Source: an uncultured Mycoplasmatota bacterium (GTDB lineage Bacteria; Bacillota_I; Bacilli_A; RF39; UBA660). From it: 64,000 bases of DNA. How positions within the stretch are numbered: position 1 is the stretch's first letter; every line of letters begins with the position of its first letter. A model generated the notes under the pieces. The model was not told the origin of the DNA, made no database searches, and saw nothing but the letters and a program-made list of their open reading frames with translations. The position numbers were made by a program, and so were the translations under genes. Below are positions 2,551 to 64,000 of the stretch, one piece after another. The stretch lies in NCBI GenBank assembly GCA_947365915.1, contig CANAXT010000001.1, positions 7,347-71,346 on the forward strand, given 5' to 3'.

Positions 2551-2962
2551 CTTTGATTCCTTCTTTCCATTTTTGACTCAGTTCTTTCCATAGATTTACG
2601 TTTTTGATTTTCAATCTGATGGGAATAATATTGTTTTCTACTAATAATTTTTTTGAAATCGACATTACCACATACGCATATATTATATTTTCGCCAGCGA
2701 TTAATTCGGTGTCTATTTTTTGTAGTTTGATGTTGTTTTTTAATAATGCTTGTTCAAATGGTTCTAGTTGTTCTTTTGTTAGGGCGATTTTAATGGTTGC
2801 GTTTTCGGATTTCTCTACAATTCCATAAAAGGTTTGATAGATTGGATAATGGATATAAATAGTACTAAATAATAGAAGTATGGTTAAAATAAAAATCAGT
2901 ATTAAGGATCCTTTTATTCCTTTGGGATAGTTGGTATTGGTTGTCCAATTTATGTTATCCAT
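2513..2962 (-). CDS. short single-TM protein; possible truncated HlyD/LcnD-type export accessory protein or an immunity protein
   Basis: 149 aa with an N-terminal TM (LILIFILTILLLFSTIYI) followed by a coiled-coil-like region. It lies between the ABC exporter and the peptides. The 3' end overlaps the peptide A start by 38 nt. It is far shorter than the usual ~450-aa accessory proteins. Confidence 0.4.
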   Translation of the reverse strand: MDNINWTTNTNYPKGIKGSLILIFILTILLLFSTIYIHYPIYQTFYGIVEKSENATIKIALTKEQLEPFEQALLKNNIKLQKIDTELIAGENIIYAYVVMSISKKLLVENNIIPIRLKIKNVNLWKELSQKWKEGIKDETNRTRTFNNN

Positions 2963-8273: not shown

Positions 8274-8282
8274 ATGTTTATC

Positions 8283-8918: not shown

Positions 8919-8934
8919 GATATGACCTCCTTTT

Positions 8935-10065
8935 TTATTCTGAATATTCACTTGTGATACCTAGGTATTCTTCCAATGTAATCCAGTTTCCTCCATTATA
9001 TAGTTTTTTGGATAAATCGCCAACATATCTTAGATGCCATGGTTCGTATTGGTATCCAGTAATATTTTCTTTTCCTTTTGGGTAACGGATAATAAATCCA
9101 TATTTATAAGCATTATTTTGAAGCCACTTTCCTTCCTTTGTTTCTCCAAAGCTGAATAATAAGCTATTGACATCGATGGCAAGTCCTGTTTGATGTTCTG
9201 AGTGTCCTGGTCTTGCGGAATAGGTGTCAGCTTCTGTTTTTCCGTCTCGTGCTACATAGTTGCTATAGAGTCTATTTTGGGTGTTATAGGAACGGAACCC
9301 ACTCACAATTTTTAGTTCAATTCCGTCTTCACTTGCTTTTTGTTTTAGTGTTTCAAAAGCTGATGTTAGTTCTGGTAGTAGTCCTGGTGCATAATTACTT
9401 GGTAAAGCATAGGTTTTATTAGCAATTAAAATGTTTCCAATATAATACATTCCATTTTTTACTTCAATAGAGTAACCTTTAGAAGTTTTTTTGGTTCCTT
9501 GATTTGGTTTTTCATTTTTTGGTTCTTCTATTTTTTTTGATATTTCTTTGACAATGAGTTTAAAAGATTCAGTTTTTTTATTTCCACTTTTGTCTTTTGC
9601 TTCATAGGTAAGATTGTATTCTCCCTTTTTGTGTACATCATACTCTCCAATTACATTGATTTCGATTTTGTCATGACTATTGTCTGTTACTTTAATTTCT
9701 TTTAATAAATCGATTTCTTCATTTTCATAGATTTCAAGATTTTTTACGTTTTCTATGGTTGGTTTTATGTTGTCTGTTACGGTTAAGTTTATTGGATACG
9801 TTTTCTTATTTACAGTAAAGTTTCCTTGATAGTTTCCTGTGTGATAAATATTTTCATTTTCTAGTTTTAAGTTTTTCCATGTTATTTTTGTCGTATTTGT
9901 TTTTTTTTCTAATTGATATTCTATTTTTGTTGGTACTTTTTCTCCTATTTTTAATTTGATTTCTTTTTGGTACGTTAATTCTTTTGGTTTTTTAAAAAAA
10001 AGTATTAGTGTAGTTACTACAATAATGAAGAAAAGTACTATTAAGATTTTTTGTTTCTTTTTCAT
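8935..10065 (-). CDS. membrane-anchored VanY-type D-alanyl-D-alanine carboxypeptidase (M15B) with an Ig-like spacer
   Basis: The C-terminus SGFRSY...SARPGHSEHQTGLAIDV...GFIIRYPKGKENITGYQYEPWHLRYVG carries the VanY/M15 Zn-ligand motifs. It has an N-terminal TM. The start was set at MKKKQKILIV, which has an RBS. Confidence 0.75.
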   Translation of the reverse strand: MKKKQKILIVLFFIIVVTTLILFFKKPKELTYQKEIKLKIGEKVPTKIEYQLEKKTNTTKITWKNLKLENENIYHTGNYQGNFTVNKKTYPINLTVTDNIKPTIENVKNLEIYENEEIDLLKEIKVTDNSHDKIEINVIGEYDVHKKGEYNLTYEAKDKSGNKKTESFKLIVKEISKKIEEPKNEKPNQGTKKTSKGYSIEVKNGMYYIGNILIANKTYALPSNYAPGLLPELTSAFETLKQKASEDGIELKIVSGFRSYNTQNRLYSNYVARDGKTEADTYSARPGHSEHQTGLAIDVNSLLFSFGETKEGKWLQNNAYKYGFIIRYPKGKENITGYQYEPWHLRYVGDLSKKLYNGGNWITLEEYLGITSEYSE

Positions 10066-10149
10066 TTTTTTCCTCTTTTCTACATTTATTATAACATGTT
10101 TTTTCAAAGAAAAATAATCATTTTCCATAATCATTTATTTTTTTAGATA

Positions 10150-10300
10150 TGATCGTCTTTTTACGACACTTTTCCCCTTATTTTGGACAAATTTAAACAA
10201 AAAAATCTTAATTCAATAAGAATTTTTTTATTTCAAACTAGTGCATGAGTAAACCACATTTAGGAATTCGTATTAAAGTTAATTTCTAAACTAATCATAA
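10150..10300. repeat. direct repeat copy 1 (about 80-150 bp): partial copy of the tRNA-Arg 3' flank plus the islet end sequence
   Basis: TTTGGACAAATTTAAACAAAAAAATCTTAATTCAATAAGAATTTTTTTATTTCAAACTAGTGCATGAGTAAACCAC... aligns to 12456-12600 and to 15214-15285. Confidence 0.8.
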
Positions 10301-10400
10301 CATTTGCAATCTTTATAATCAATAAAATTACAACAAAATAATAGTAGAATCGATAGAAATATTCTTCGGAAAATAATTGTAAAAATTTATTGATTATCAT
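10260..10400 (-). CDS. candidate small hydrophobic peptide (46 aa)
   Basis: MIINKFLQLFSEEYFYRFYYYFVVILLIIKIANVMISLEINFNTNS. A strong RBS AAAGGAG lies 7 nt upstream. The 3' end reads into repeat copy 1. It is not in the ORF track. Confidence 0.3.
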   Translation of the reverse strand: MIINKFLQLFSEEYFYRFYYYFVVILLIIKIANVMISLEINFNTNS

Positions 10401-10453
10401 TCTAGATCTCCTTTAAAAATTTTTATTTTATTTGGAAACATTAATAAAAATGA

Positions 10454-10882
10454 TCAAGTTATCGATTTAAAAGTATCTTTCGTTTTTCTAAAGTCTAAAA
10501 CTAAAAAACCATCATATTTTATTTTAATTAATTCATCATTCAATTCAAAAAAAGTTTCAACTTTATTATCTTTTAATTCTTTTATTTTAAGCATTATATT
10601 GCTTTCAATTTCTGTATCTAAAAATTTTTCTGTATCAAATACTTCAAAAAATACATCGTTTTCAAAAGGAATCTCATTATAATTCTTATTCAAAAAACAA
10701 TTTATATTATTATCTTTTTCAAATCCTGCATCTAAATTTATATAACCCTTTTCTTTATTATCAATATTAATAAATGTTAATTGAATATTGATATTATAGC
10801 CTTTAGTTCCATTTTTTGCATATGTTCCAACAAATATTTTTTGTTCAAGAACCTCAATATTTTTATTATCTATATACAACAT
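10454..10882 (-). CDS. hypothetical protein (islet A cargo)
   Basis: A 142-aa ORF that is extremely AT-rich. Confidence 0.4.
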   Translation of the reverse strand: MLYIDNKNIEVLEQKIFVGTYAKNGTKGYNINIQLTFINIDNKEKGYINLDAGFEKDNNINCFLNKNYNEIPFENDVFFEVFDTEKFLDTEIESNIMLKIKELKDNKVETFFELNDELIKIKYDGFLVLDFRKTKDTFKSIT

Positions 10883-11094
10883 AGATACTCCCCTCCTTTT
10901 ATATATTTCTATTACTTAGATACCATATCATTTATTATTAATCTTATTTAATAAAACTGGTGTTAGTATAGATATATAGACACAAAAAGCAAGCTAGCAG
11001 GTGTTATAGTACGTGAATATAGCATAAGTAATGCAGTTCTTTACAGATGGGTAAAAGAATATTTTTTTACTCATTTTTATCGCCTACTTAAAAT

Positions 11095-12183
11095 TTATCT
11101 ATCTATATATTTAACAAAGAAATCATCATCTTCAGAATAATGCATATCAATATCAATATTATTCATTTGAACAAATCCTTTATTTTTGTAAAATGTGTGT
11201 GCATTTTTCAATATTTGTCCACAAGCTAAATAAATCTTGTTTATTTTAGTATTAGATTTAATATACTCAATTAGATTCTCATATAATCTTGTTCCAACAC
11301 CAATATTTTGATACTTTTCATCAACATAAAAACGTTTTAATATACCATAATTATCATTTCTATTTTCTAGTGCTATAGTTCCTATAATTTGTTTCTTTTT
11401 TATATCAATGGCTAACCAAAAGTTTCCATTATTTTTTATATAATAATCATTTATTTTAGATATATCAGGTCTTACTTTGTATTTTCTACCTATAAATTTA
11501 TACATGCTTTCATTTATAAAATAACAAACTTCATCACTATATTTATCATCATAAGTGATAATTTTGACAAGCGCATTTTTATTAATATAGTCATAAATCT
11601 GTTGCCAATTATCAAAATTTTTGATTTTATTATTTAACTTCTTACTATTTCCAATGGTGAATGCTAAAATTCCTGAACTTGATACATTAGAGCAATTGCA
11701 TATGCTATCATCTATTAGTAAATCAATATCATTTTCCAAGCATACTCTTTTTTTATTTCTGGCATTAACTATTAATTTATCATAATATATATCATTTTTC
11801 TTTAACCAAACTTCACTTTGCATATAAGGATTATCGTGAAATTCACTATCTCTAGCAGTAATTATATATATTTCATTGCCTTCATCACGCAACTTTTTTA
11901 TTACTTCTACACAATGATTTCTAGGGGTAGCATTATTTGTTATTTTCTCCTGTATTGTACCTAAAAAATACTTCAATTCATTATAAGTGAAATGAAACAG
12001 TTTTTGATATACATTTCCATCATTGTATGCATCATTAATATTTAAATCTTCATTTTCTACATATTTGTTTAACGTTTTAGCATATTCAACTGCTGCATTC
12101 ATTAATTTGTCATTTATATCAGTTAAAGTGTTATCTATATCAATTCCTATTCTCAATTTAATCACTTCCCAATGCATAATCAT
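11095..12183 (-). CDS. fusion of a HAD-family 5'(3')-deoxyribonucleotidase-like domain and a GNAT acetyltransferase (islet A cargo)
   Basis: The N-terminal RIGIDIDNTLTD is the DxDxT HAD motif, and IYIITAR follows. The C-terminal RFYVDEKYQNIGVGTRLYENL is GNAT motif A. A more likely start is the TTG at 12156 (MRIGIDID...), which has RBS GGGAAGTGA. Confidence 0.6.
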   Translation of the reverse strand: MIMHWEVIKLRIGIDIDNTLTDINDKLMNAAVEYAKTLNKYVENEDLNINDAYNDGNVYQKLFHFTYNELKYFLGTIQEKITNNATPRNHCVEVIKKLRDEGNEIYIITARDSEFHDNPYMQSEVWLKKNDIYYDKLIVNARNKKRVCLENDIDLLIDDSICNCSNVSSSGILAFTIGNSKKLNNKIKNFDNWQQIYDYINKNALVKIITYDDKYSDEVCYFINESMYKFIGRKYKVRPDISKINDYYIKNNGNFWLAIDIKKKQIIGTIALENRNDNYGILKRFYVDEKYQNIGVGTRLYENLIEYIKSNTKINKIYLACGQILKNAHTFYKNKGFVQMNNIDIDMHYSEDDDFFVKYIDR

Positions 12184-12224
12184 TTATATCAATTATACCA
12201 AGAATCTCTAATAATCGATATAAA

Positions 12225-12600
12225 TGATACGCTATTACATTAAAAATGTTAAAAATAACTAGTATTCATTTATCATATAAAGACATTCAGATTTCAAAAT
12301 GAGAATGATTTTTTCAAAGTTAATCATTTATTTTTTGAGATAGGATAATTTTTTCGCGACACTTTTAGTAAAAAAAGCTATCCTAGCATACAAAATCATA
12401 AATGCTGAAAATTATCTATGCTTGAAAATAAATATATAGGCAACCGTCTTTTACCCTTTATTTTTGGCGAATTTAAGCAAAAAAAATTCTTAATTGAATA
12501 AGAATTTTTTTATTTCAAACTGGTGCATGAGTAAACCACGTTTGGGAATTCATATTAAGGTTAATTTCTACATTAATTATAACTATATAGTTTTTGTATA
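12225..12600. repeat. direct repeat copy 2 (about 375 bp), including the palindrome and the tRNA-flank copy
   Basis: It is about 90% identical to 15005-15285 over about 300 bp, and the last 60 bp match copy 1. Confidence 0.8.
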
Positions 12601-12799
12601 TTAAAAATGTCTCAGTTTTATTATTTTCTATTGATTTTAGCCATTCTTCATAGTAACAGCTATATTCTTCTATATCTCCCATACCTGAATATTGCCACTT
12701 AAGATTTTCATCGAATTTTTTAATTTCCTCTAAAAATTTTAAAAGTTCCTCCTTGTAAGATAAATCAGGTTTAATCAACTTAAAATCATTTCTTTTCAT
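12515..12799 (-). pseudogene. truncated gene remnant whose reading frame runs into repeat copy 2
   Basis: The N-terminal 75 aa are unique. The C-terminal INVEINLNMNSQTWFTHAPV is encoded by the repeat, which parallels the small ORF at copy 1. Confidence 0.35.
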
Positions 12800-13691
12800 T
12801 ATATTCCTTCTTAATATCGTTTAATGCAATTAATTGTAAATCTTTGCTATTTAAAAGTATGTTCCTATCTATTTCTAAACAATCTGCAACGTCAAACATT
12901 AGCCATGTGCTCATATATTTACTTGAATATAACATTTCTAAAAAGAGTTGCAATCCTTTTAATTTATCAATATTATGTTTTTCTTCTAGTGTTATTATAC
13001 AGCCCCTAACAAACAAATAAGAGCTTATATAAGAGAATCTAAACGAACAAGTTTTATTAGGTAGTAGTTCTGCTACCCCAAAGCTATTTTCTTCTTCCTC
13101 ATTTAGTAATTCTTCTACTGTCAATATTTGTTTTTCATCTAAATCAATTAAAGCTTGTGTATGATTTGTATATTGTTTTTGTAAATCTAGAATATAAAGT
13201 GGTATTGTTTCAGCAACTCCTTCTCCTAAAATTGTCGAATTTCTAAAAAAGTTGCTATGAAGTATATGAGATAATTCGTGTATTTCATTTTCAAAACAAG
13301 CAATGCTTTTTTTATTTTTTTCAAAATTCTCACACAAATTATCACTAATCCCAAAAGCAGAGGAAAAACCGTCTATATCAAAACAATTTACAGGTTTACC
13401 TCCACCATTTCCTTTGTTAAATTTATCTGGATATCCTAAAAGTTCTACATACTGATCAAATGGCACAATATATAAATAATAAATTGGCTTAGCATTAGAT
13501 GGATAATTTAAATTCAACTTATATAATAATTTATAACATTCATTTGTATATTCTAAATAATCATCGTAAAAACCTTTATCATATCTAATAGCTAATTCTT
13601 TACTTAATCTTACTTTGATATTTTCATTAAAAATTCTAAGTTCTGAATTTTTTATATATTCCCTTAAGTCATCTTTTTTTAATTCATTCAT
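12786..13691 (-). CDS. putative HExxH metallopeptidase-like protein (islet B cargo)
   Basis: It contains ENEIHELSHILHSNFFRNSTILGEGVAE (HExxH...E), which is similar to the motif of the core gene at 6857-7663. Confidence 0.4.
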   Translation of the reverse strand: MNELKKDDLREYIKNSELRIFNENIKVRLSKELAIRYDKGFYDDYLEYTNECYKLLYKLNLNYPSNAKPIYYLYIVPFDQYVELLGYPDKFNKGNGGGKPVNCFDIDGFSSAFGISDNLCENFEKNKKSIACFENEIHELSHILHSNFFRNSTILGEGVAETIPLYILDLQKQYTNHTQALIDLDEKQILTVEELLNEEEENSFGVAELLPNKTCSFRFSYISSYLFVRGCIITLEEKHNIDKLKGLQLFLEMLYSSKYMSTWLMFDVADCLEIDRNILLNSKDLQLIALNDIKKEYNEKK

Positions 13692-13713
13692 AAATTTCTA
13701 CCTTCTCTCATAA

Positions 13714-14595
13714 TTAATGAAATATTTTATTTAACAATCTATTAATTAATTCTTCTGATTCCATCTCATTAATGGCAAAACATTTTTTGCCTAAATCTTT
13801 AAATGATGAGCCACAGGAATATAATTTTTTTCTATCTATAATTATGAATCTATCATGAAATATATCAGTGTTTTTAAATTCTATATTAGAATACTGATTT
13901 TTGTATTTTTTCACCAAAATGTCATCAATATTTTTGGAAATAATGACTATTTTCTTATTTACATTTTTTAAAATCTTCAATAACTCTTTTCCAGCATAAT
14001 TATCAATAATAATTATTTCTTCTTTTGCAGTGTCAAATATATTTAATAAAAGCACATAAGCGTCAAATATTTGACCTTCAAAGAATATCGTATTAATTTT
14101 TTCTTTTTCTTGCATTTTATTAAATGTATTTTCTAGCTTTAATATTCTATTTTCGTGATTTAATAGCATTTCACTATTTACTAAACTGTTAGAAACATAC
14201 CTTCTTAATTTTACAAATGCATCAATGATTTGTACATTTACTTTAACTGCTATATCACTTTTAAGTAATCCAGATAACATCATTATTCCTTGTTCTGTTA
14301 AAACATAAGGTAAATATCTTACACCACCATGATTATTTTCACTTGAGATCGCAAATTGCGACCTCAAGTTATAAAATTCAGTCTCTGTTAATTGAAAGCA
14401 AAAAGTATCAGGAAATCTTTTAATATTTCTTTTAATAACCTCATTAATTCTTCTTGTTTCTACTTGATAAAGTTTAGCAACATCTGATGATAACATTACT
14501 TGAACCCCTCTTATTTCATATATCATTTTTTCTACATTATTATTAACATTAACAATATTATTATTTTCTTTTTCTTTAACTGTAATATTTGACAT
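13714..14595 (-). CDS. ORF6N/KilA-N-like DNA-binding domain protein (mobile-element associated)
   Basis: MIYEIRGVQVMLSSDVAKLYQVETRRINEVIKRNIKRFPDTFCFQLT...GGVRYLPYVLTEQGIMMLSGLLKSDIAV is an ORF6N domain. The C-terminal half is ORF6C-like. Confidence 0.65.
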   Translation of the reverse strand: MSNITVKEKENNNIVNVNNNVEKMIYEIRGVQVMLSSDVAKLYQVETRRINEVIKRNIKRFPDTFCFQLTETEFYNLRSQFAISSENNHGGVRYLPYVLTEQGIMMLSGLLKSDIAVKVNVQIIDAFVKLRRYVSNSLVNSEMLLNHENRILKLENTFNKMQEKEKINTIFFEGQIFDAYVLLLNIFDTAKEEIIIIDNYAGKELLKILKNVNKKIVIISKNIDDILVKKYKNQYSNIEFKNTDIFHDRFIIIDRKKLYSCGSSFKDLGKKCFAINEMESEELINRLLNKIFH

Positions 14596-15004
14596 TTAAA
14601 ACCTCCTTTCAAGCAATTTGTTTTAAGAAGCACCTAAAAAATATTTAATTTAGAGCAAAATTTCAAAATAAATCTTAAAGTATTTAGGCTCACACCTAAC
14701 TGTTTCTGTTTCTTAGGTACCTTGTTCATTCACTTTTCTATTCTTGATTCACCATCATACAAATTTTTTTATTTGTTCATATTCTTTCTTTTTATCTTCT
14801 AAGTAATAATTGTAAAGTAATCGGTTGCAATCAAATATTTTATGAATCAACTCTTTCCATTCTATGTTTAGAATAAATTCTAAATTTATGGGCTTTATGA
14901 ATTATCATTTTCATCACCTTTGTATAATCGATTATATCAAGAACAAATATTCACATCAATGCTTTTTTACAAATTTTTGTATGACTTTTCTATTCTATAA
15001 AAAT

Positions 15005-15280
15005 AACTAGTGTTCATTTATCATATAAAACAATTTAGATTGTAAAACGAGAGCGATTTTCTCAAAATCAATCATTTATTTTTTGAGATAGGATAGTTTT
15101 TTCGCGACATTTTCGCGACACTTTTAGTTAAAAAAACTATCCTAATATACAAAACCATAAGCATTGAAAATCATTTATGTTTGAAAAGAAATATATAGAC
15201 AACCGTCTTTTACCCTTTATTTTGGGCGAATTTAAGCAAAAAAAAATTCTTAATTTAATAAGAATTTTTTTATTTCAAAC

Positions 15281-15285
<5 letters not shown>
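15005..15285. repeat. direct repeat copy 3, the native 3' flank of tRNA-Arg
   Basis: It is homologous to copy 2 over about 280 bp. It contains the palindrome AGGATAGTTTTTT-CGCGACATTTTCGCGACA-CTTTTAGTTAAAAAAACTATCCT. Confidence 0.8.
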
Positions 15286-15357
<72 letters not shown>

Positions 15358-15401
15358 GATTTGTTCAAATGAACAAATAAATTATACATCAAATATTTTA
15401 A

Positions 15402-17330: not shown

Positions 17331-18803
17331 CTAATTTATTTTTTTGTTTAACATATAAGCCCCACCAAATAATAAGATTGAGAAAAGTCCTAATAATAAA
17401 TATTGTGTAATTCCATCATAGGTATTTGGATTTTGCTCCTCCAAAATTGTTGTTTGTCCTGTTTTTTCTTCTGCTATCACATAAGTACTGAAATGATTTG
17501 TTTCAAATGTTGCATTTCCATATTCATCTAAAGTTATTTTGTGTTTCTCTAACGTATTATCGTTTTTAATATAATAAGCAACTAAGCTTTTTCCTATATA
17601 ATTTGTTCCTAATGGAATAGTAATTTTAAATAGGCCTGTCTCTAATTTTGTTATAAATTTTCCTAGAGTTTCAGAGTATAAATTAATATCAAATGCTCTA
17701 AAATTATCTGTCATGAGTACTTCTTTAATTTTATTATATTCTTGTGTATTTTTACCTACTTCACTTGCTTCTACTGTGGCATCTAATGGTACTTCTAAAC
17801 TATCAGTAGAAACTTGAATTGCGGTCTCACTACTTGTTTTTGTATATGTTGGTAGCTTCATTTCTTCTGGTTTTTTTATTACAACAAATGGATAAGTTTT
17901 TCCGTTTATTTTAATGTAATAGTAGTTTCCATCTGTTTGGGTTTGATCTACAAAAGTGTATTCATTTGGATCATTTAGGAAAGTATTTAAGTCGCCTCCA
18001 TAAGTAACTTCGATGTTTTTATTGGCAAAAGAATTTGATAATTTTTGCTTTATTGCCTCTATATATGCTTCCTTGGTAGAAACTGTATTAGCAGGAATAT
18101 ATATTACATTATTCAGTTTCACACTTGAAATTTCCCCATATCCATAAGCTGTACCTTTATAATAAACAATTGAACTACCTGTTTCATCATCTCCGATAGA
18201 TGGGTCTCTTTTCGCACTTACATTTATTTTAATAGAAATGCTATAATCTTTTGTGAAATTGATCACTTCTGGTACAAACATAATACTAGAAGTCAATGGG
18301 TTATATTCTGATCCTGTTGGAATCGTCAAATAATAATTTATCAAGTTTAAATCTTCTAGGATATAGTTTTCTAAGTTATTATTGAAATTCACCTTTTTGA
18401 TATTGTTCACAACTTGTTGGGCGTTATTTGCAATTGCCTCATTTCTAGACTGATATTTTAATTGAACAGTACGAGTTTCTATTGTTGTATAATTTCTTGA
18501 GTTCTCTGCATCTTGCTTTTCAATAGAAAGATTACATTGTTCTGGTGTTTGAAAGTCTATATTCCATCTATATCCATCATTCAATTTGAAGTTTTTTAGA
18601 TATATATCTAATATTGTGCGCTCCCAATCATTTTCATAAGAACTTTTTGTCTTATAAACTGGCTCTTTTATGGCATTTAATTCAATGATATTACTAGGTG
18701 CTGCCTTATTAAAGATTGGTGCAGTATATTCATCTGCTTTCGCACTTACAGAAAATCCTAAAAATATCAGTGCTGTAAAAAGTAAAATTTTTAAATTTTT
18801 CAT
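17331..18803 (-). CDS. surface protein, putative sortase B substrate (signal peptide; NPNTY motif + hydrophobic segment + KK tail)
   Basis: Signal peptide MKNLKILLFTALIFLGFSVSAKA. The C-terminus is ...EEQNPNTYDGITQYLLLGLFSILLFGGAYMLNKKIN. It is divergent from srtB. RBS AGGAGAG is present. Confidence 0.6.
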   Translation of the reverse strand: MKNLKILLFTALIFLGFSVSAKADEYTAPIFNKAAPSNIIELNAIKEPVYKTKSSYENDWERTILDIYLKNFKLNDGYRWNIDFQTPEQCNLSIEKQDAENSRNYTTIETRTVQLKYQSRNEAIANNAQQVVNNIKKVNFNNNLENYILEDLNLINYYLTIPTGSEYNPLTSSIMFVPEVINFTKDYSISIKINVSAKRDPSIGDDETGSSIVYYKGTAYGYGEISSVKLNNVIYIPANTVSTKEAYIEAIKQKLSNSFANKNIEVTYGGDLNTFLNDPNEYTFVDQTQTDGNYYYIKINGKTYPFVVIKKPEEMKLPTYTKTSSETAIQVSTDSLEVPLDATVEASEVGKNTQEYNKIKEVLMTDNFRAFDINLYSETLGKFITKLETGLFKITIPLGTNYIGKSLVAYYIKNDNTLEKHKITLDEYGNATFETNHFSTYVIAEEKTGQTTILEEQNPNTYDGITQYLLLGLFSILLFGGAYMLNKKIN

Positions 18804-18934
18804 AAACTCTCTCCTATCTGTTCTTAGTATATCATTTCCATAAAATTTGGTCAAGAAAAAAATTTTTTATTTTTGCCTGCCTTAAATAATTGATACTTTT
18901 AAAAAAAACGTGATATAATCAAAGCGGTGATTAC

Positions 18935-19753
18935 ATGTTCGAAAAAATAAAGAAAAAGAAAAAAACGTTTATTTTAATCATTATGATCATGAGTATGATT
19001 ACTTTACTATTTTCTATTTTTCAAATTATAAATTGGAAAAAAGATTCGAATAAAACAAAAAAGGAAACTGTTAAAATTGAAAAAATTACTGATATCAAGG
19101 AAAAAGAAGACTCTAGTAATACTGAAATTATTGGTCAAGATATTTCTAAAGATGATCCTTACTGGGATTACATCAAGATGAACTTAATGGATGTTAATTT
19201 TAAAGATTTAAAGAAAAAAAACAGTTCTGTTGCTGGATGGATCCAAGTGCTTGGAACAAATATCAATTATCCTTATGTTTGGACAACAGATAATGAGTAT
19301 TATTTGACACATTCATTTGATAAGTCTAAGAATTATGCTGGATGGGTATTTTTGGATTATCGAAATCATAAAAGTGAGTTGTCTAAAAATAATATTATTT
19401 ATGCTCATGGTAGAAAGGATCATACAATGTTTGGTTCTTTAAATAAAATTTTAACAAATGGTTGGTTCTTAAATTCTAAAAATCATGTAGTTCGTATGTC
19501 TACAGAAACAGAGAATACTTTATGGCAAGTGTTTAGTGTATATCGAATTCCAAATACTAGTGATTATATTCAAGTTAATTTTAATAATGATGATGAATTT
19601 TCAAAGTTTGGCTCGATGATATTATCAAGAAGTAAACACAATTTTAGTACTTCTATTGATGGTAATGATACGATTTTAACGCTTTCTACTTGTTATGATG
19701 ATTATGAAAAAGTAGTTTTACACGCAAAATTGATTAAAAGAGAAAAAAAATAA
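18935..19753 (+). CDS. srtB: class B sortase
   Basis: An N-terminal TM, then GWIQVLGTNINYPYV, YAHGRKDHTMFGSL (catalytic His), LTLSTCYD (TLxTC Cys) and a conserved Arg. An extended -10 TGaTATAAT promoter is present. Confidence 0.8.
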   Translation: MFEKIKKKKKTFILIIMIMSMITLLFSIFQIINWKKDSNKTKKETVKIEKITDIKEKEDSSNTEIIGQDISKDDPYWDYIKMNLMDVNFKDLKKKNSSVAGWIQVLGTNINYPYVWTTDNEYYLTHSFDKSKNYAGWVFLDYRNHKSELSKNNIIYAHGRKDHTMFGSLNKILTNGWFLNSKNHVVRMSTETENTLWQVFSVYRIPNTSDYIQVNFNNDDEFSKFGSMILSRSKHNFSTSIDGNDTILTLSTCYDDYEKVVLHAKLIKREKK

Positions 19754-37471: not shown

Positions 37472-37711
37472 TTACTCTATGACGTTTAAATTTCCACCGA
37501 ATTTGATGTCATAATCATCTAATATGTCGTAAAATGTGATTTTGTCTAGTGAAACGACTTCTTTTACATCGATCATGATATCCATGATTCCATATTCGTT
37601 TAGAATATAATAGAGCTTGCGTTTAAGCTCTATTAGGTTTTTATGGTTGGCATTTCCTCTTATTTTTACGTAGAGGATATTTTTACTAAATTCAATTTCG
37701 GTCTTAAACAT
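37472..37711 (-). CDS. small hypothetical protein (79 aa)
   Basis: RBS AGGAG is 9 nt upstream of the MFKTEIEF start. The longer track ORF (254 aa) overlaps the murT start and is treated as an artefact. Confidence 0.4.
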   Translation of the reverse strand: MFKTEIEFSKNILYVKIRGNANHKNLIELKRKLYYILNEYGIMDIMIDVKEVVSLDKITFYDILDDYDIKFGGNLNVIE

Positions 37712-37841
37712 AATTATCAGCTCCTGCTTTACTATATCATTTTTGTTTTTTTCTAGGAACCGATTCGACAAAACTAGAAAAAACTTGTCTTTTATTTGTT
37801 CTTTGTGATAAAATAGTAATACGTTTTTATTGAGGTGAATC

Positions 37842-39164
37842 ATGAAAAAATTTCTACTTATTTTATTAGGCAAATGTGTTATTGTGTTGGGTCGTGTTAT
37901 TCGTAGGGGAAGTTCTCTTCCTGGGGAACTTATTTTAAAGATAGATTCTAATTTTATGAGAAAAATAGAGTTACCAAAAACCGTAATTGCGGTTACAGGG
38001 AGTTCTGGTAAGGGTTCTGTTTCTAGTATGATTCGAAAGGTATATGAGCAAAATGGATATACGGTTGCACATAATTCTAAGGGATCTAATTTGAGTGCGG
38101 GAATTATGACTTTATTATTAGAAAATTCAACGTTGTTTGGGAGAATAAAAAAAGATGTTTTGGTTTTTGAGATTGATGAGCGATATTTAAAGTTTGTGTT
38201 TCCTGTTTTATCTCCTAGCTTTGTAGTGATTACCAATTTAACACGTGATCAACCTCCTAGACAGGGACATTTTGATCTTGTGTTTGAGGAGATGGAAAAA
38301 GCAATTACCAATGATATGCATTTGATTTTAAATGGTGATGATGCTTATCTACATAAGTTTGCTTTTCGTCATAATGGTCCAATTACTTATTATGGTATTT
38401 CTAAGAATAAGTATTCTTATTCTAAAAATAAGTTTCAAAATCTTAATTTGAATTATTGTCCAAAGTGTCATAAAAAATTAGAGTATGATTTTTATCAGTT
38501 TGAGAATTTAGGAAGTTATCATTGTAGTAAGTGTAGTTTTAAAAGACCTAGTATTGATTTTGAGGTTACTCGTTTAAATTTTGAAAATAAAGAAATGGTG
38601 ATTAATGGTTTGTATACGATCCCTATTTCTTCCGAGGTTTTATATGAGGTCTATAATTTGTTAGCGGTTTTTAGTACTGTTGTTACGGTTGGTTTAGATC
38701 CTACTTTGGTCTCTAATAGTATTGGTTTGCTTCCAAAAAAGGTATGTGATGAGTATCAATATGAAGGTAGAATTGTTCATGTTTTAAGTAATAAGAATGA
38801 AAATAGTACAACTTTTAATCAGTCTTTGTTGTTTTTGGAACGCTTTCGTGATTTAAAGACAGTTGTTATTGGTTGGAAAGAAATTAGTAGGCGTTATCAG
38901 TTTGATGATTTATCTTGGTTATATGATATCGATTTTGAGTTGTTGAAAAAGCATGATATTGATAAGATTGTTTGTGTTGGAATTCATCGTTATGATATTG
39001 CAACCAGGATGAAGTATGCTGGTATATCAGAGAAAAAAATTGTTGTTTTTGATGATTTAAGAGAAGCTACTCATGAAATTAAGTTAAAGACAAAGGGAAA
39101 TATATACGCTGTTTTGAATTTTGATTATGTGGAACCATTTAATCGCTATATGAAGGAGAGCTGA
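37842..39164 (+). CDS. murT: lipid II isoglutaminyl synthase subunit MurT (Mur ligase family)
   Basis: VTGSSGKGS P-loop, a Mur-ligase middle domain, and a C4 zinc ribbon CPKCHKK...CSKCSF. Confidence 0.85.
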   Translation: MKKFLLILLGKCVIVLGRVIRRGSSLPGELILKIDSNFMRKIELPKTVIAVTGSSGKGSVSSMIRKVYEQNGYTVAHNSKGSNLSAGIMTLLLENSTLFGRIKKDVLVFEIDERYLKFVFPVLSPSFVVITNLTRDQPPRQGHFDLVFEEMEKAITNDMHLILNGDDAYLHKFAFRHNGPITYYGISKNKYSYSKNKFQNLNLNYCPKCHKKLEYDFYQFENLGSYHCSKCSFKRPSIDFEVTRLNFENKEMVINGLYTIPISSEVLYEVYNLLAVFSTVVTVGLDPTLVSNSIGLLPKKVCDEYQYEGRIVHVLSNKNENSTTFNQSLLFLERFRDLKTVVIGWKEISRRYQFDDLSWLYDIDFELLKKHDIDKIVCVGIHRYDIATRMKYAGISEKKIVVFDDLREATHEIKLKTKGNIYAVLNFDYVEPFNRYMKES

Positions 39165-39169
39165 GATTC

Positions 39170-39919
39170 ATGAATATTACAATTGCCCATTTTTATTATG
39201 ATTTGTTAAATTTGTATGGGGAAAGTGGTAATGTGAAGGCATTACAATATCAGTTAGAAAATCAAGGAATTCGTGTAAAAATACAGTTTGTTACAATTGG
39301 AGATACGCCTGATTTTAGTAAGTATGATTTTATTTATATGGGGGCTGGAACGGAAGCGAATCAAAAGCTTGCTTTAAAGCATTTGATGAAGTATAAGGAT
39401 GAAGTGAAAAATGCGATTCATCAAGGAAAGTTTTTTTTGGTTACTGGGAATTCGTTGGAATTATTTGGAAAATGTATTATTAATAAGAATGAGAAAAAGG
39501 TTCGTGCGCTTCATGTTTTTGATTTTTATACAAAAGAGGAAAATTTTAGGATGGTCGATGAGGCTTTGGTAAAATCTAAGTTTATGAAGCCCTATCTGAT
39601 TGGGTTTCAAAATCAAAGCAGTGTGATTAAGGGCAATGATAATTTTATGTTTGAAGTTATTAAAGGGATTGGTAGTTTTCCAAATAGTAAGATTGAAGGA
39701 GTTCAATCAAATAATTTCTATGGTACTTATTTGATTGGTCCCATTTTGGTTCGTAATCCTGAGTTTTTAAAGTATATGGTGAAAAAGTTAGTGACAAGTA
39801 AAAATGAGAATTTTAAGTTTCAGCGCTTTAATTTGACTTTGGAAAATAAGGCCTATCAAGAGTTTATGAAAAATTATTATAAAGAATATGTGAGTATACA
39901 AAAAAGTGGTCAATTGTGA
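39170..39919 (+). CDS. gatD: lipid II isoglutaminyl synthase glutaminase subunit GatD (CobQ-type GATase)
   Basis: GATase1-like. It lies immediately downstream of murT. Confidence 0.8.
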   Translation: MNITIAHFYYDLLNLYGESGNVKALQYQLENQGIRVKIQFVTIGDTPDFSKYDFIYMGAGTEANQKLALKHLMKYKDEVKNAIHQGKFFLVTGNSLELFGKCIINKNEKKVRALHVFDFYTKEENFRMVDEALVKSKFMKPYLIGFQNQSSVIKGNDNFMFEVIKGIGSFPNSKIEGVQSNNFYGTYLIGPILVRNPEFLKYMVKKLVTSKNENFKFQRFNLTLENKAYQEFMKNYYKEYVSIQKSGQL

Positions 39920-39932
39920 TCACTCTTTTTTG

Positions 39933-42776
39933 TTAGTCTAATAGGACTACTCGGAAGGAGAAATTAGTAACTGCAAGACCACTATAATGATCAAAAGTGA
40001 AAATTCCTGCAAGAGTCTTATTTTCGTATCTACCACCACGAATGAACCATGGAGCCTTGACAGAGAAAATAATAGTACTATCAAAATACCATCCGCTCGT
40101 CTCACTTAGGGCATGCCCATAACATATTCCTCCGTTACATGCTGTTTCTATTGAATTGCTCGCATAATTATCATAATATTTATTTGCTGGTAAACTATTA
40201 AACCCTGCATTTCCTATTGTACTATTATATACCCCCATTACGTATTCATATGCTCCTCCGCTCATGTCATATACTCCGTATATTGTTCCTGTTGTACTTG
40301 CTCCTGTTCCCGCTAGACTGATATTATATTTATTTATGCAAGTTGTTGTTTCTTTACCATTTGGTGTCCCTGCACTACAGCCTGTTATACAATTACTATT
40401 ATTGTTGATATATACTTCTTTATTTACTCCTGTGTAATTACTGTTCCCATATTTTCCATATTTACTCTGACTTAAGTACGCTACTGCTCCCCATTCACTG
40501 TTCTTCATCATATGCGAATCCGCACTCGTACTTATTCCGTAACTATTTCCTGATGCACTAAATTTTTGTGCTGTTGTAAACTGCGTACTTACATCCTGAT
40601 TTGTTATCGAACTTGAATTTGGTTTTATCATTGGTGTTGTCGCATTTCCCGTTGTTTCAAATTTTCCTACCCATATTCCTGCTAATTCTTGATTTCCAAA
40701 ATTAAACGCTGGATGTATCTTGTAATTATTACTTGGACTTGTCTTACTTGTTGTTATAAAGTTTATATTTATCTGGCCTGGAGTTGATTCACTTCCTCCT
40801 GCATAATTCACTATATTTACATAATCATATTCATATCTTGGGATCCATACAAAATATGCATTTATCGCACTCTCCGGTATAGAATCACCTACTGCTGCAT
40901 TCCGATAACTACTTGTTACTGCTGCTGCATTTGCCCACATCTGAGTATTATAATCATACCATTGATTTGCTCCGCTTCCATTATTCTCATCTGCTCTTAT
41001 CCATGTACTTCCATTCCATTTAATTGGGATAAGTCCATTTGACAATGTTGGCTTATTCGCTCCTGTCGTATCTACATTTGGCACTTTTACAACAATTGTT
41101 TTATTTGCTGATTTTTTTAATCCAGTATTTCCTGTTGCTGTACATGTTATTGTATGAGTTCCGACTGCTAAGCTACTTGTATTTGTTACTGTAGTTGATC
41201 CATTCTTACAAACTATACTTCCTGTTCCACTTATTCCCCATATTGGTGTATTAAAGTAACTTGTAATTACATTACTTGCTCCTTCTAAAATCGTTACTGG
41301 ATCAGTAGATTTTACTGTATATGTTGGTTCTGTCACATCAATTTTATATTGATCACTTGTATCTTCATTTGTATTACCATGGATGTCACTTCCTGTTAAT
41401 TTAATAATATAAATTCCACTCTCATTTAACTCTATATCTACTTCTGTACTTTTCCCACTTACACTTACATTTTGGATTCCCTTTGATACTCCATCTTTGA
41501 TCACTTCATATGTAAATGTCTTTAAATTACTGTTGTCAGTTGCTGTTACTGTAATTGTTTGACTCTGCGTCCATAATTCACTCCCCCGATTACTAAAGTT
41601 TAGTATTGGTCCTTCCGCTTCTACTACTGTAAACTTCCTTACAACACTTTCTTCATTTCCTGCTTCATCTATTACCTTATATGTTACAGTCTGTTCTCCT
41701 AATACAGCTGATAATCCACCAATCGTTTCTACTGTTGGATTTTGATCTACATTGTCACTAACTATAACTCCAGTCATTAAGTCATAACTTGTTACTTCTG
41801 TAATCTTAATATTTGTATTTTCTGGAACTGTAATACTTGGTTTTGTTTGATCTATTTTATAGATTTTACTTAATGTATTTGTATGACTGTTGTCATCTGT
41901 TACTGTAACTACTATTTCATAAAGTCCTGTTTCATTTAATGTTAAAGTCTTAGTTAATCCTGATACCGTTTCAGTTTTGATACTCGTTCCATCTTTTTTA
42001 ATCTCATATATAAAACCTTCTACTTTATTTGGTCTTATTCCACTTACACTAATTAAAACCTCCTTTTCTTTTACATAAGTTTCATTACTCTCTGTCATTG
42101 TAATTACTGGTGTCATAGAAAGTACTACTACAGTTCTAGTAATAGTTGCTACTTTATCATTACTACTTGTACTATAAATAACCTTATATGTTCCTTCTAC
42201 TGAAGTATCTATATTACTTATAACTTCATCATTCTTCTTTATTTCACTTGTATATTCAAGAACATCTCCACCTCTAGTTTGAGCTGCTGCTCCTAATTCT
42301 TCATATGTTCCATCAATTTCTACATACACTGTTGCATCCCCATTTAATGTAATTACAGGATCTTTTTCATTTTCAGACAACATACATTTTCCTTTTTCAT
42401 ATTTAGAAAGTGTTACTTCACTATCTAAAAATCCTTTGATTGCACACCATTCATTGTTATGAATCGCTACACTAATTTCTCCATTTGGAGTTATAGTTAG
42501 CATTCCACCTTTTGGACTAGATCCACTATACTCTAATCCAACTGGTTTTCCACTATCAAAAGAAAATGTTTTTTCTTCCGATAATCCTCCATCTAAAATA
42601 CTTTCCGCATATAATAATTTCGCACTTTCTATTAATCCATAAGTACTATCTTTAAAAGCGCTTTTCTTAGATTTCTCTACAATATTTAATATAATTGGTA
42701 CCGCAATTAACGCAATAATTGCAAGTATTACAATTACTGCTAGTAACTCAATTAAAGTAAAACCTTTCTTCTTCAT
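39933..42776 (-). CDS. 947-aa protein with a prepilin-type N-terminal leader, multiple Ig-like domains and a C-terminal FGE-sulfatase (SUMF1)-like domain
   Basis: The N-terminus MKKKGFTLIELLAVIVILAIIALIAVPII is a class III (type IV pilin/ComGC-like) signal. The C-terminus ...WFIRGGRYENKTLAGIFTFDHYSGLAVTNFSFRVV has the FGE RGGxW...GFR motifs. Local GC is visibly higher than the surroundings. Confidence 0.65.
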   Translation of the reverse strand: MKKKGFTLIELLAVIVILAIIALIAVPIILNIVEKSKKSAFKDSTYGLIESAKLLYAESILDGGLSEEKTFSFDSGKPVGLEYSGSSPKGGMLTITPNGEISVAIHNNEWCAIKGFLDSEVTLSKYEKGKCMLSENEKDPVITLNGDATVYVEIDGTYEELGAAAQTRGGDVLEYTSEIKKNDEVISNIDTSVEGTYKVIYSTSSNDKVATITRTVVVLSMTPVITMTESNETYVKEKEVLISVSGIRPNKVEGFIYEIKKDGTSIKTETVSGLTKTLTLNETGLYEIVVTVTDDNSHTNTLSKIYKIDQTKPSITVPENTNIKITEVTSYDLMTGVIVSDNVDQNPTVETIGGLSAVLGEQTVTYKVIDEAGNEESVVRKFTVVEAEGPILNFSNRGSELWTQSQTITVTATDNSNLKTFTYEVIKDGVSKGIQNVSVSGKSTEVDIELNESGIYIIKLTGSDIHGNTNEDTSDQYKIDVTEPTYTVKSTDPVTILEGASNVITSYFNTPIWGISGTGSIVCKNGSTTVTNTSSLAVGTHTITCTATGNTGLKKSANKTIVVKVPNVDTTGANKPTLSNGLIPIKWNGSTWIRADENNGSGANQWYDYNTQMWANAAAVTSSYRNAAVGDSIPESAINAYFVWIPRYEYDYVNIVNYAGGSESTPGQININFITTSKTSPSNNYKIHPAFNFGNQELAGIWVGKFETTGNATTPMIKPNSSSITNQDVSTQFTTAQKFSASGNSYGISTSADSHMMKNSEWGAVAYLSQSKYGKYGNSNYTGVNKEVYINNNSNCITGCSAGTPNGKETTTCINKYNISLAGTGASTTGTIYGVYDMSGGAYEYVMGVYNSTIGNAGFNSLPANKYYDNYASNSIETACNGGICYGHALSETSGWYFDSTIIFSVKAPWFIRGGRYENKTLAGIFTFDHYSGLAVTNFSFRVVLLD

Positions 42777-43121
42777 TTAGCCATCTCCATTCTAAATATA
42801 TTATAGTCTAGTATAGGCTATAAATCAAGTTTTTGTTTTCTATTCCTTATTATGAATAACAAATGAAAAACTATACCTTTTCCTTCTATTACGTTATACT
42901 AGAGCATTTAAAAATTGTCAAAAAAACTTTAATATCTTCTTAAAGTTTCTATTTTTCATCATGTTTTTAATTTATTTTTTCATATAATTTAGAATATAAA
43001 ATAAACGGTTCGTGCCAATTTTCATAATATCTCATAATAGCATCTCTAGAAGAAATCCTAATTCTACCAATTTTTTTAGGAAGTTGGAACTGTTTTTTTC
43101 TAAAATAGATACAAAAAAATC

Positions 43122-44003
43122 CTAGTTTTCACTAAGACCTTTCTCTATTTGTTCCACATGTTCTTTTGATAATTCTGTAATTTCCATAATCGTTTCCATA
43201 TCAAATCCTTTATGAAACATATTTTTTACAGTTTCGCTTTTTCCTTGTTCAACTCCTTTTAGTCTGGCCTCTTCTATGTAAGTATTTTGTTCCAGTACTT
43301 TTTTAGGTAGTTCCATAAATAATCCTACGATTTCTTCATCTTTGCTGTATTTGTCTATTTCGTCCACTAATTTTTCATTTGATTCTCTACTCATTAAATC
43401 ATCCCCAATCGCTTCCTTTAGTTCTTTTTCAGTTGTTGACGTGAATACTTTACACCATTTCATAATCCTCTCATCTTTACTAGTATACCACAGTTTTGAT
43501 CCTAGTACCATATCTATGATATCGATTTGAAATTTTTTTGATAGAATCTCTCCTTTTTCATTGGTTAGAAAATATGATTCTTTGATGTCTTTTTCATTAC
43601 ACCTAAAGTTATTTAATTGAATTTGTAGGGTTCTTTCAATATGGGTGTAATCATTGTCACCATATTTGAGTCGTCTTCCATGGATACTACAAGCAGATAC
43701 TAAATTTCTTTCAGTGATATATTCAGAACCTCGATTGGATAGCTCAATGTTGATTTTTTCTTGTCCAAAACGGATGACTAAATCGACTTGGATATTTTTG
43801 TCTTTTTTGTGCTCAAGTTTTAAATCTCTAGGTTGTATGGTTACATTTCCTTTGATTTTATTATATGGGATTTTTAGATAATCTGATAGAAAGTACTCTA
43901 TTAAGTCAATATTGTCTGGATTATTAAATATGGCAGCAAATACGTAATCAAATGAGAGTGGAACGATTTCTCCTGGAGCTAATGTTTGCTTTCTTTTGTT
44001 CAT
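43122..44003 (-). CDS. Rpn/YhgA-family recombination-promoting nuclease / putative transposase (PD-(D/E)XK)
   Basis: N-terminus LSFDYVFAAIFNNP. C-terminus GVEQGKSETVKNMFHKGFDMETIMEITELSKEHVEQI, which resembles the E. coli RpnA C-terminal repeats. Confidence 0.65.
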   Translation of the reverse strand: MNKRKQTLAPGEIVPLSFDYVFAAIFNNPDNIDLIEYFLSDYLKIPYNKIKGNVTIQPRDLKLEHKKDKNIQVDLVIRFGQEKINIELSNRGSEYITERNLVSACSIHGRRLKYGDNDYTHIERTLQIQLNNFRCNEKDIKESYFLTNEKGEILSKKFQIDIIDMVLGSKLWYTSKDERIMKWCKVFTSTTEKELKEAIGDDLMSRESNEKLVDEIDKYSKDEEIVGLFMELPKKVLEQNTYIEEARLKGVEQGKSETVKNMFHKGFDMETIMEITELSKEHVEQIEKGLSEN

Positions 44004-46568: not shown

Positions 46569-47617
46569 TTTTCTTCACTCCCTTCTACTCGATTAAAGTT
46601 TTCTAAAAAGCGTAAGTCATTTGTGTAAAAATGACGGATATCGTTGATTCCATATTTTAACATGGCTACTCTTTCTGGTCCAATTCCAAAGGCAAAGCCT
46701 GTATATTTTTCTGGATCATAGCCACATCCTCTTAATACGTTTGGATGAACCATTCCAGATCCTAGTATTTCGATCCAACCAGTTCCTTTACAAATAGAGC
46801 ATCCAACGCCTCCACATTTAAAGCAGCTTACATCTACTTCTAGGCTTGGTTCTGTAAATGGAAAAAAGCTTGGTCTAAAACGAACTTCACGATCACTTCC
46901 GAATAGTTTTTTGGCTATTTCTTCTAAGGTTCCTTTTAAGTGAGATAGATTGATATTTTCTCCTACTACCAGTCCTTCTATTTGGGTAAATTGATGAGAA
47001 TGGGTTGCATCATCGTCATCTCTTCTGTATACTTTACCAGGACAAATCACTCGGATTGGTGTTTTTTCTAAGTTGGCATCCATCGTTCTTGCTTGAACTG
47101 GTGATGTTTGGGTACGTAGTAACATTTCTTCTGTGATATAAAAGCTATCTTGGGCATCTCTTGCTGGATGTCCTTTTGGAAGATTTAGTTTTTCAAAGTT
47201 ATATAAGTCTTCTTCTATTTCTGGTCCTTCTACGACATCATATCCCATAGAAATAAACAAATCTTCTATTTCTTCTATGACTTTGGTAAGGGGATGGATT
47301 CCTCCTATGTGAAGTTTTGTACTTGGAAGGGTAATGTCAATTTTTTCAGTTTCTAGTTTTTTATTCAATTCTTGTTCTTCTAGAGTTTTACGTGTTTGTT
47401 CAAATAAGGTATTTGTTTCATTTTTGAGTTCGTTTAAGATTTTTCCAAATTCTTTTTTTTCTTCTATTGATAGTTCTTTCATCATAGAAGTTAGTTCATT
47501 TATTGGTCCTTTTTTTCCTAAGTATTTCACTTTTAGGTCATTTAATTCTTTTACTGAAGCTACTGATTTTAAGCTTTCTTTTATTTCTTGTTTTAAAGCT
47601 TCTACTTTTTCTTTCAT
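46565..47617 (-). CDS. pheS: phenylalanine--tRNA ligase alpha subunit
   Basis: Class II aaRS motifs. The start was set at the [13 protein letters not shown], which has an RBS. The track start is a TTG inside the RBS. Confidence 0.9.
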
Positions 47618-47639
47618 TTTATCAATTCCTTTCAAAAAA

Positions 47640-47850
47640 AATCACAATCCTATAAGGACGTGATTTGACGTGGTACCACCTTAATTTGTAGAGATCTCTA
47701 CCTTGAAACTGTAACGCGTTACCGTTATATGTTTGGCATATAAAACTCCAAGCTGAATTCATAAATGGATATGATCTATTTCCACCAACCATAGACTCTC
47801 TTTTCATATCTCTATTTATTACTACTTCTCTTCTTTGTTTTTCAAATTTA
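47640..47850 (-). promoter_or_regulatory. T-box riboswitch leader (Phe) with promoter
   Basis: T-box AAUUAAGGUGGUACCACG. Terminator AAUCACGUCCU-UAU-AGGAUUGUGAUU followed by U8. Specifier UUC-A. Promoter TTGTAA-17-TACAAT. Confidence 0.8.
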
Positions 47851-63754: not shown

Positions 63755-64000
63755 AACCACCTCCTTGAAATAAAAAAAGAGCAAAACATCCAAAAAGGAC
63801 GAATTGCTCGTGGTACCACCTTTATTTGTAATAATAGTTTATTACCTCTTATTGATAACGGATACTATCCGATTTAAAATCATCATTTGTAATTCATTAT
63901 TTTAATTTTGCTTATTTTCACCAGCCATAAGCTCTCTACAAATTATTTTAAAATAATTACTTTGAATGAATCACTTTTTAATTAACTGACTAGATTATAC
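63755..64000 (-). promoter_or_regulatory. T-box riboswitch leader (Tyr); the promoter -10 sits at the window edge
   Basis: Stem I AGAGAG. Specifier UAC-A in AAUUACAAAUG. T-box AAAGGUGGUACCACG. Terminator GAGCAA...UUGCUC followed by U7. A TATAAT lies at 63994-63999. Confidence 0.8.

Follow-up and report, generated by a model that had tools for sequence, protein, structure and literature searches.

The open reading frame (ORF) at 39933..42776 (minus strand) of a 64,000-nucleotide stretch of DNA from an uncultured Mycoplasmatota bacterium (contig CANAXT010000001.1, positions 7,347 to 71,346; hereafter the window) encodes a 947-aa protein. We find that this gene probably encodes a modular type IV pilin, that is, a long-reach adhesin of variable specificity with a variable head in the style of diversity-generating retroelements (DGRs). 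Sequence comparison and structure prediction together define its architecture, the fold relationships of its parts and the confinement of its hypervariability to one short segment: a pilin module at the N-terminus is followed by a stalk of immunoglobulin-like (Ig-like) domains and by a C-type lectin (CLec) head. The protein belongs to the ‘modular pilins’ as Raynaud et al. 2021 use the term, since its pilin module is joined to a further functional module with no specific tie to pilus biology.

A type IV pilin module is joined to a stalk of Ig-like domains

The protein begins with a class III (prepilin) leader, MKKKG (aa 1-5; 42762..42776, minus strand), for which cleavage is predicted after Gly5. 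Both profiles of the prepilin motif match above their curated cut-offs, PF07963 with 30.8 bits (cut-off 21.2) and TIGR02532 with 32.1 bits (cut-off 16.3), and the N-terminal sequence, MKKKG/FTLIELLAVIVILAIIALIAVP, has Gly at position -1, Phe at +1, Glu at +5 and Pro at +22. The prepilin-type N-terminus proposed in the initial annotation of this region, which was made from the sequence alone, is thus borne out. The G/FTLIE motif is nearly invariant in the family alignment, and the 947-aa protein is the single instance of a prepilin-type N-terminus in the window.

The residues that follow the leader form a complete type IV pilin module (aa 6-135; 42372..42761, minus strand), with a hydrophobic α1N segment (Phe1, Glu5, Pro22), an α1 helix, a β-sheet and two cysteines (Cys111 and Cys131). 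The full-length AlphaFold model, with a predicted local distance difference test score (pLDDT) of 78, has a 54-residue N-terminal helix (aa 8-61) and a small β-sheet (aa 69-125), then about five β-sandwiches (aa ~138-565) and a large C-terminal domain. Indeed, a profile of the family matches solved type IV pilins over up to ~100 residues; the best match is Streptococcus sanguinis PilE1 (8pfb, E = 7e-10), and MshA and PilA are also matched. Similarly, in a related mouse-gut metagenome-assembled genome (MAG), the locus L013 has three tandem pilin genes of 138-144 aa that have the same α1 helix and match the first 140 residues of the window protein with 83 bits (phmmer). L013 also has a 525-aa paralogue in which the same pilin module is joined directly to the C-terminal domain, and the short paralogues of 520-560 aa lack the Ig-like stalk region.

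The stalk consists of about five Ig-like β-sandwich domains (aa 136-565; 41082..42371, minus strand). Based on Pfam, it contains PF16403 twice (39.7 bits), a borderline HYR match and PKD-like matches, and in the AlphaFold model the β-sandwich blocks fall at roughly residues 138-220, 222-308, 312-386, 389-480 and 483-565, with a pLDDT of 80-90; the earlier assignment of Ig-like domains to the body of the protein is therefore sound. The same ‘bacterial surface Ig-like’ domain (PF16403) is found in a VanY D-Ala-D-Ala carboxypeptidase encoded at window positions 8935-10134.

The head is a C-type lectin related to DGR variable proteins

The C-terminal head (aa 566-947; 39936..41081, minus strand) has a CLec fold of the formylglycine-generating enzyme (FGE) subclass and is of the DGR variable-protein (TaqVP) type. 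The structure of aa 565-947, predicted with a 54-sequence family alignment, has a pLDDT of 92.6 and a predicted template modelling score of 0.94. Among solved structures, it is closest to TaqVP, the DGR variable protein of Thermus aquaticus (5VF4; phmmer E = 2e-4, Foldseek E = 9e-11), and not to an FGE; its best viral structural matches, in BFVD, are phage tail-fibre heads.

The initial annotation had called this C-terminus FGE-sulfatase-like and had left room for an enzyme. The likeness holds at the level of the fold only. The FGE profile (PF03781) scores 16.4 bits against a cut-off of 23.3 and aligns over profile positions 141-214 of 255 only; weak FGE matches of this kind are found in 25 of the 54 family members. 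We take the catalytic, Cu-binding Cys pair of FGE to be placed C-terminal to the RGG motif, as in human SUMF1. No Cys follows the RGG motif in the window protein sequence, RYENKTLAGIFTFDHYSGLAVTNFSFRVVLLD, and thus this pair is absent. The head and FGE/SUMF1 share the general FGE-subclass CLec fold and several motifs, but the segment equivalent to the catalytic one is hypervariable in the window protein. Given the sub-threshold profile match and the missing Cys pair, we rejected the FGE enzyme as a candidate, and an active FGE/SUMF1-type oxidase or related enzyme displayed on a pilus is extremely improbable. Proteins of this kind should not be named sulfatase-modifying enzymes in annotation.

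Hypervariability is confined to a VR-like tail

We compared the window protein with four homologues (P0002-P0005) that are 69-84% identical to it overall. Over aa 1-895, its identity to these proteins is 0.76-0.91; in aa 896-940 the value is only 0.33-0.42, and in the last 7 aa it is ~1.0. The hypervariable tail (aa 896-940, …FDSTIIFSVKAPWFIRGGRYENKTLAGIFTFDHYSGLAVTNF; 39957..40091, minus strand), which is followed by a conserved SFRVVLLD end, resembles the variable region (VR) of a DGR, and it is collinear with the VR and the template repeat (TR) of three relatives, L042, L116 and L120. The tail is also unusual in its codons, with 18 of 24 conforming to NNY compared to a background of 0.41, and in its adenine content, which is 0.24 compared to 0.42.

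DGR cassettes and probable dispersed targets are found in relatives of the window gene

L042, a locus of a Bacilli MAG from rabbit gut, has a prepilin–CLec gene and, after it, a non-coding, Asn-rich TR encoding …RGGNYNNTSNAGVFNFNNNGNSNNNNSFRVVL, then a small ORF with MutS domain I, a bAvd gene (E = 1.9e-14) and an RVT_1 reverse transcriptase (RT) gene (E = 2.5e-17) with IGNYTSQ and YMDD motifs. Adenine makes up 30% of this TR, and 29 of the 43 substitutions between VR and TR are at TR adenines. L116 has the same cassette order (TR, MutS_I ORF, Avd-sized ORF, RT), and all 11 of its VR/TR differences are at TR adenines; the N-terminus of its target is Sec-like and not a prepilin leader. The corresponding proportions are 17 of 20 differences for L120 and 16 of 28 for L097.

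The MutS domain I ORFs lie between the TR and Avd, at 2260-2622 in L042 (120 aa) and at 5134-5598 in L116 (154 aa). They match Msl (MutS-like), an accessory so far reported from the DGRs by which Bacteroides varies its type V pilus tips (bioRxiv 10.1101/2024.11.15.621889), and are found here on Bacilli-type contigs.

In the MAG MGBC102946, at least 12 distinct family C-termini are found on separate contigs, and six of these have GC-rich tails (GC 0.54-0.60 in a genome of ~30% GC) with a common scaffold. Among the six dispersed paralogues, adenine occupies only 2 of 59 invariant VR columns, compared to 61 of 154 columns in the adjacent control region (Fisher p = 1e-8); a test of variability by codon position on nine paralogues was uninformative because these are too diverged. 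No RT was found within 10 kb of any of the six tails. One DGR acting on several remote targets would be expected to leave such a pattern.

The window copy may be a remote or a retired DGR target

Several observations weigh against a DGR-made head, particularly for the window copy itself. First, the tail has a GC content of 0.38, which is genome-like and well below the 0.54-0.60 of apparently live VRs; it contains three codons, AGA, GAA and AAG, that are not NNY and that AAY-to-NNY mutagenesis could not produce; and its scaffold codons differ synonymously from those conserved among the apparently live, GC-rich paralogues. These three features fit drift after DGR activity ended. Second, we found no cassette in the 64-kb window. 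Ungapped scans for a TR with the last 90, 120 and 150 nt of the gene gave a best off-target match of 49/90, and a six-frame search of the window for Asn-rich RGG…FR frames found none. Likewise, no RT, Avd or Msl gene (RVT_1, bAvd, MutS_I) was detected in the window by Pfam, which covered 55 of its 57 called genes, by a scan for RT motifs, which was positive for L042, or by phmmer probes taken from relatives, which matched neither DGR nor pilus-machinery genes among all window ORFs of at least 100 aa. Third, even the L042 pair has 14 VR mismatches that are not at adenines, as well as an indel. A self-BLAST of every locus for adenine-biased repeat pairs also found none in the window, with thresholds that missed the true L042 pair as well. 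A comparison of the window tail with heterologous TRs placed 19 of 51 differences at adenines, which is no bias; templates this distant would be expected to show none, and the result weighs on neither side. Since no TR, RT or Avd is found in the window, the copy would be either a remote target of a DGR elsewhere in the genome or a former target that is now drifting.

It is nearly an even question whether the window tail is not, or is no longer, made by a DGR, such that ordinary mutation, positive selection or recombination between paralogues shaped it and its DGR likeness is ancestral only. In addition to the missing cassette, the genome-like GC content and the codons just described, Glu, Gln and Lys also occur in the tails of the homologues P0002 and P0003, which speaks for this explanation. 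It does not readily account for divergence that is sharply limited to exactly the 45 VR-homologous residues and stops at the invariant last 7 aa, nor for the NNY enrichment and adenine depletion that are still present. Moreover, dispersed paralogues in a sister genome carry the adenine-specific signature without a local RT, and thus remote targeting occurs in the lineage. Current DGR activity on the window copy is somewhat doubtful in our estimate, and this gene may be a retired target.

The family is large and is found mainly in uncultured gut Bacilli

Searches with the head domain returned 3,752 cluster representatives (50% identity) at E ≤ 1e-3 and 1,173 at E ≤ 1e-30. Nearly all genomic matches are to MAGs from the gut of mouse, rabbit, chicken or human that belong to uncultured Bacilli or ‘Tenericutes’. 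The prepilin motif is present in 93 of the 120 closest homologues, and remoter members of the family have other display signals or are giant proteins with tandem heads. Three such giants, P0121 (3713 aa), P0122 (4516 aa) and P0230 (4340 aa), have six to nine tandem CLec heads behind a transmembrane or signal-like N-terminus that is not a pilin leader. The size of the family, together with the presence of at least 12 copies in one mouse-gut MAG, suggests that pilus-displayed hypervariable lectins may be a principal means of colonisation for uncultured gut Bacilli.

Display on type IV filaments is the favoured role of the pilin module

A linkage of the family to type IV filament genes is seen in L076, where the family gene (7959-9626) is followed by genes for T2SSF (E = 3.9e-46), a prepilin peptidase (A24_N_bact and Peptidase_A24) and T2SSE (E = 5.6e-123) and by pilin genes. 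The T2SSE gene was located by way of the neighbouring A24 motif and Pfam; a search for PilB-type ATPases with a strict Walker A pattern gave no match, the pattern being so strict that it missed this T2SSE. Peptidase_A24 genes also adjoin family members in L160 and L146, and in L069 three minor-pilin-like genes lie directly upstream of two CLec genes. Most copies of the family are dispersed among housekeeping genes and are not in pilus operons.

Based on this linkage and on the homology of the full pilin module to short pilins, the suggestion that the protein is a pilin-anchored surface adhesin using the type IV pilus pathway gains support. We infer that a prepilin peptidase would cut the precursor after Gly5 and methylate Phe1, and that the hydrophobic α1 helix would then dock the protein into a type IV filament of short major pilins, most likely at the filament tip or as a minor subunit. 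The stalk would serve as a spacer between the filament and the lectin head, the variable surface of which might bind a ligand, either glycan or protein, on the host, in mucus or on other microbes. In the family, DGRs rewrite this surface: the RT, assisted by Avd and the Msl accessory, copies the TR into the 3′-terminal part of the gene and makes its errors specifically at adenines.

Two points tell against incorporation into filaments. As had been noted initially, the window contains no pilus machinery: no gene for a prepilin peptidase (Peptidase_A24), the T2SSE ATPase or the T2SSF platform was found in the 64 kb by Pfam on 55 of the 57 called genes, in agreement with the phmmer probes. Moreover, a 947-aa subunit may be too bulky for any position except the filament tip. 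Alternatively, the pilin-like N-terminus could serve only in secretion and anchoring, with the protein tethered to the membrane through its α1 helix or assembled in short pseudopilus-like stubs, so that the head stays at the cell surface. The protein would then resemble the sugar-binding proteins of archaea that have class III signals. The window gene, a monocistronic unit, has no pilus genes close by, most of its paralogues are likewise outside pilus operons, and elsewhere in the family the same CLec head is joined to SipW/TasA-like, Sec-like and ‘KGFAIS’ signals, which suggests that generic surface display is what matters. We consider this alternative reasonable but unlikely. Beyond the leader, the window protein includes the entire globular pilin module, for which short major-pilin-like genes are homologues; its Glu5 and Pro22, residues typical of assembling pilins, are conserved; and the L076 family member stands beside pilC-pilD-pilB and pilins. 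By analogy, the modular pilins PilB and PilC of S. sanguinis do enter filaments (PMC8179133). We therefore favour a modular pilin that is displayed on filaments.

Two arrangements of display signals and neighbours in the family were also noted. In many family members, among them those of L069 (9395-13134) and P0131, P0139 and P0141, a TasA/camelysin-like (SipW-type) signal (‘…GGTLAYFTW’) replaces the prepilin leader, and in L069 the two CLec genes with this signal are immediately downstream of the minor-pilin-like trio, a pairing of two different display signals. A short pilin–CLec gene is directly downstream of ftsA/ftsZ in two unrelated relatives (L076, 6794-9626; L080/L081, 7090-11698), a recurrent synteny with the division cluster.

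The gene joins a modular pilin to a DGR-type variable head

The window gene joins two known kinds of protein, the modular type IV pilin and the DGR-type variable head, and is not a categorically new system. Examples of modular pilins (Raynaud et al. 2021; PMC8179133) are S. sanguinis PilB, in which the added module is of the von Willebrand factor A (vWA) type, and PilC, in which it is a lectin. Like the window protein, they have an N-terminal class III signal and a small pilin module, to which a bulky functional part is attached for the filament to display. The window protein differs in its inserted stalk of about five Ig-like domains and in the nature of its head, a hypervariable C-type lectin of DGR type in place of a fixed vWA or concanavalin A-like lectin module. 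It also differs in that its gene is one of many dispersed paralogues outside a pil operon. Dataset S1 of the same study (PMC8179133) lists the combination IPR012902–IPR005532, an N-methyl motif with an FGE-sulfatase domain, in eight proteins without further study, and also lists IPR012902–IPR032179.

The variable proteins TaqVP (5VF4), Treponema denticola TvpA (2Y3C) and Bordetella phage Mtd (1YU0) share with the head the FGE-type CLec fold. To our knowledge, a pilin leader is present in none of the three, TvpA being a lipoprotein and TaqVP and Mtd proteins of prophages or phages. The window gene differs further in that no cognate TR, RT or Avd accompanies it in the 64 kb and in that its tail bears marks of drift.

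A functional parallel is offered by the type V pili of gut Bacteroides, in which DGRs rewrite the distal C-type lectin head of a pilus subunit, the tip adhesin, in a gut commensal (bioRxiv 10.1101/2024.11.15.621889). These DGRs also use Avd and Msl accessories, as the cassettes of L042 and L116 with their small MutS_I ORFs appear to do. However, type V pili depend on lipoprotein export and strand exchange in Bacteroidota, while the window protein has a class III signal, would belong to a type IV filament and comes from monoderm Bacilli, and the Bacteroides study makes no mention of type IV pili or Firmicutes. A full-text search of the literature that could be searched found no paper that joins DGRs with ‘prepilin’ or ‘type IV pilin’; the nearest, apart from the Bacteroides work, is a survey in which a ‘GspG-type pilin’ domain is noted for rare targets that bear a VR (PMC11661182).

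Type IV pili and DGRs have each been well studied, and the published link between pili and DGRs concerns the unrelated type V pili of Bacteroides. The family described here suggests that uncultured gut Firmicutes have a large and so far unstudied set of variable adhesins on their pili. In its furthest extension, the argument would have small-genome, uncultured gut Bacilli keep, in each genome, a dozen or more dispersed genes for type IV pilus tip adhesins, the heads of which are continually rewritten by one trans-acting Msl–Avd–RT system, with the window gene as a live remote target. We regard this full picture as rather unlikely as it stands. If true, it would give Gram-positive bacteria an equivalent, built on type IV pili, of an adaptive receptor repertoire. 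The family also offers concrete targets for the study of DGR action on many remote genes and, with its pilin anchor, Ig stalk and mutable head, a natural scaffold for engineered display.

The gene is not part of a GC-shifted or Rpn-linked island

The initial annotation had described the gene as a GC-shifted module flanked by an Rpn nuclease gene. The composition does not support such a shift. The GC content of the pilin gene is 0.330, compared to 0.301 ± 0.033 across the 57 window genes (z = 0.89, rank 13 of 57), and its GC content at third codon positions (GC3) is 0.170, below the window average of 0.227. The excess sits at codon position 2 (0.42) and thus is an effect of amino acid composition in a protein rich in Thr, Ser, Gly and Ala.

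The flanking gene was correctly recognised. It is located at 43122..44003 (minus strand), outside the pilin system, and encodes an Rpn-family PD-(D/E)XK (PDDEXK_2) nuclease or putative transposase (PF12784, E = 5e-18; TIGR01784, 61.2 bits). A functional linkage to the pilin gene is not apparent, since Rpn-like ORFs are close to family members at just 2 of ~80 other loci, both with weak matches. The putative transposase gene beside the pilin gene and the occurrence of close homologues in unrelated genomic contexts would speak for a horizontally acquired, Rpn-mobilised and GC-shifted island. Yet neither the GC z-score and GC3 nor the recurrence of Rpn backs this reading, the region has no bounding repeats, and core genes stand on both flanks, with murT/gatD downstream and pheT/pheS upstream, beyond the Rpn-family gene. 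We rejected an Rpn-linked mobile module or GC-shifted island, which we consider very improbable.

The real compositional anomaly of the window is located at 10001-15400 and not at the pilin gene. This stretch of ~5 kb has a markedly low GC content (0.21-0.24, compared to about 0.30) and a strong negative GC skew. Its genes include one with an ORF6N domain (13714-14595) and one with a GNAT domain (11095-12183), alongside several ORFs without a Pfam match, and it is bordered by a tRNA gene (15284-15357, minus strand). The stretch looks like an element that integrated at the tRNA gene.

Expression signals and other features of the window

The pilin gene is preceded by a GGAG ribosome-binding site (42785..42788, minus strand), read directly from the sequence 8 nt 5′ of the ATG, and by a predicted sigma70-like promoter (TTGATT-17-TATAAT; 42800..42828, minus strand), which matches the consensus at 10 of 12 positions in a consensus scan and ends ~24 nt 5′ of the ATG. 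Downstream, a terminator scan detected a bidirectional hairpin (39905..39924), with an 8-bp stem, a 4-nt loop and flanking runs of A and T, that is common to the pilin gene and the convergent gatD.

The Pfam annotation of the window (YqfD, YlbD, SpoIIIAH, Germane, thrS, recO, era, ybeY, tyrS and others) is that of an unremarkable chromosomal stretch from a spore-forming Firmicute of low GC content. T-box leaders are found at 47651-47844, upstream of pheS, and at 63792-63983, upstream of tyrS. Two of the listed ORFs (47622-47807 and 47334-47663), which overlap the region of the pheS leader, are unlikely to be genuine. Another listed ORF of 254 aa (37472-38236) shares sequence with murT, which is on the opposite strand; no more than its last ~80 aa (37472-37720; MFKTEIEF…NLNVIE), between yqfC and murT, resemble a genuine small gene. 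A sortase gene (18935-19753) is on the opposite strand beside a 507-aa ORF (17331-18854) without a Pfam match. Finally, a Peptidase_C39 and ABC transporter gene of the bacteriocin-exporter type (2955-5045), with a small unannotated ORF just downstream (2513-2962), may be an export locus for a bacteriocin or quorum peptide.

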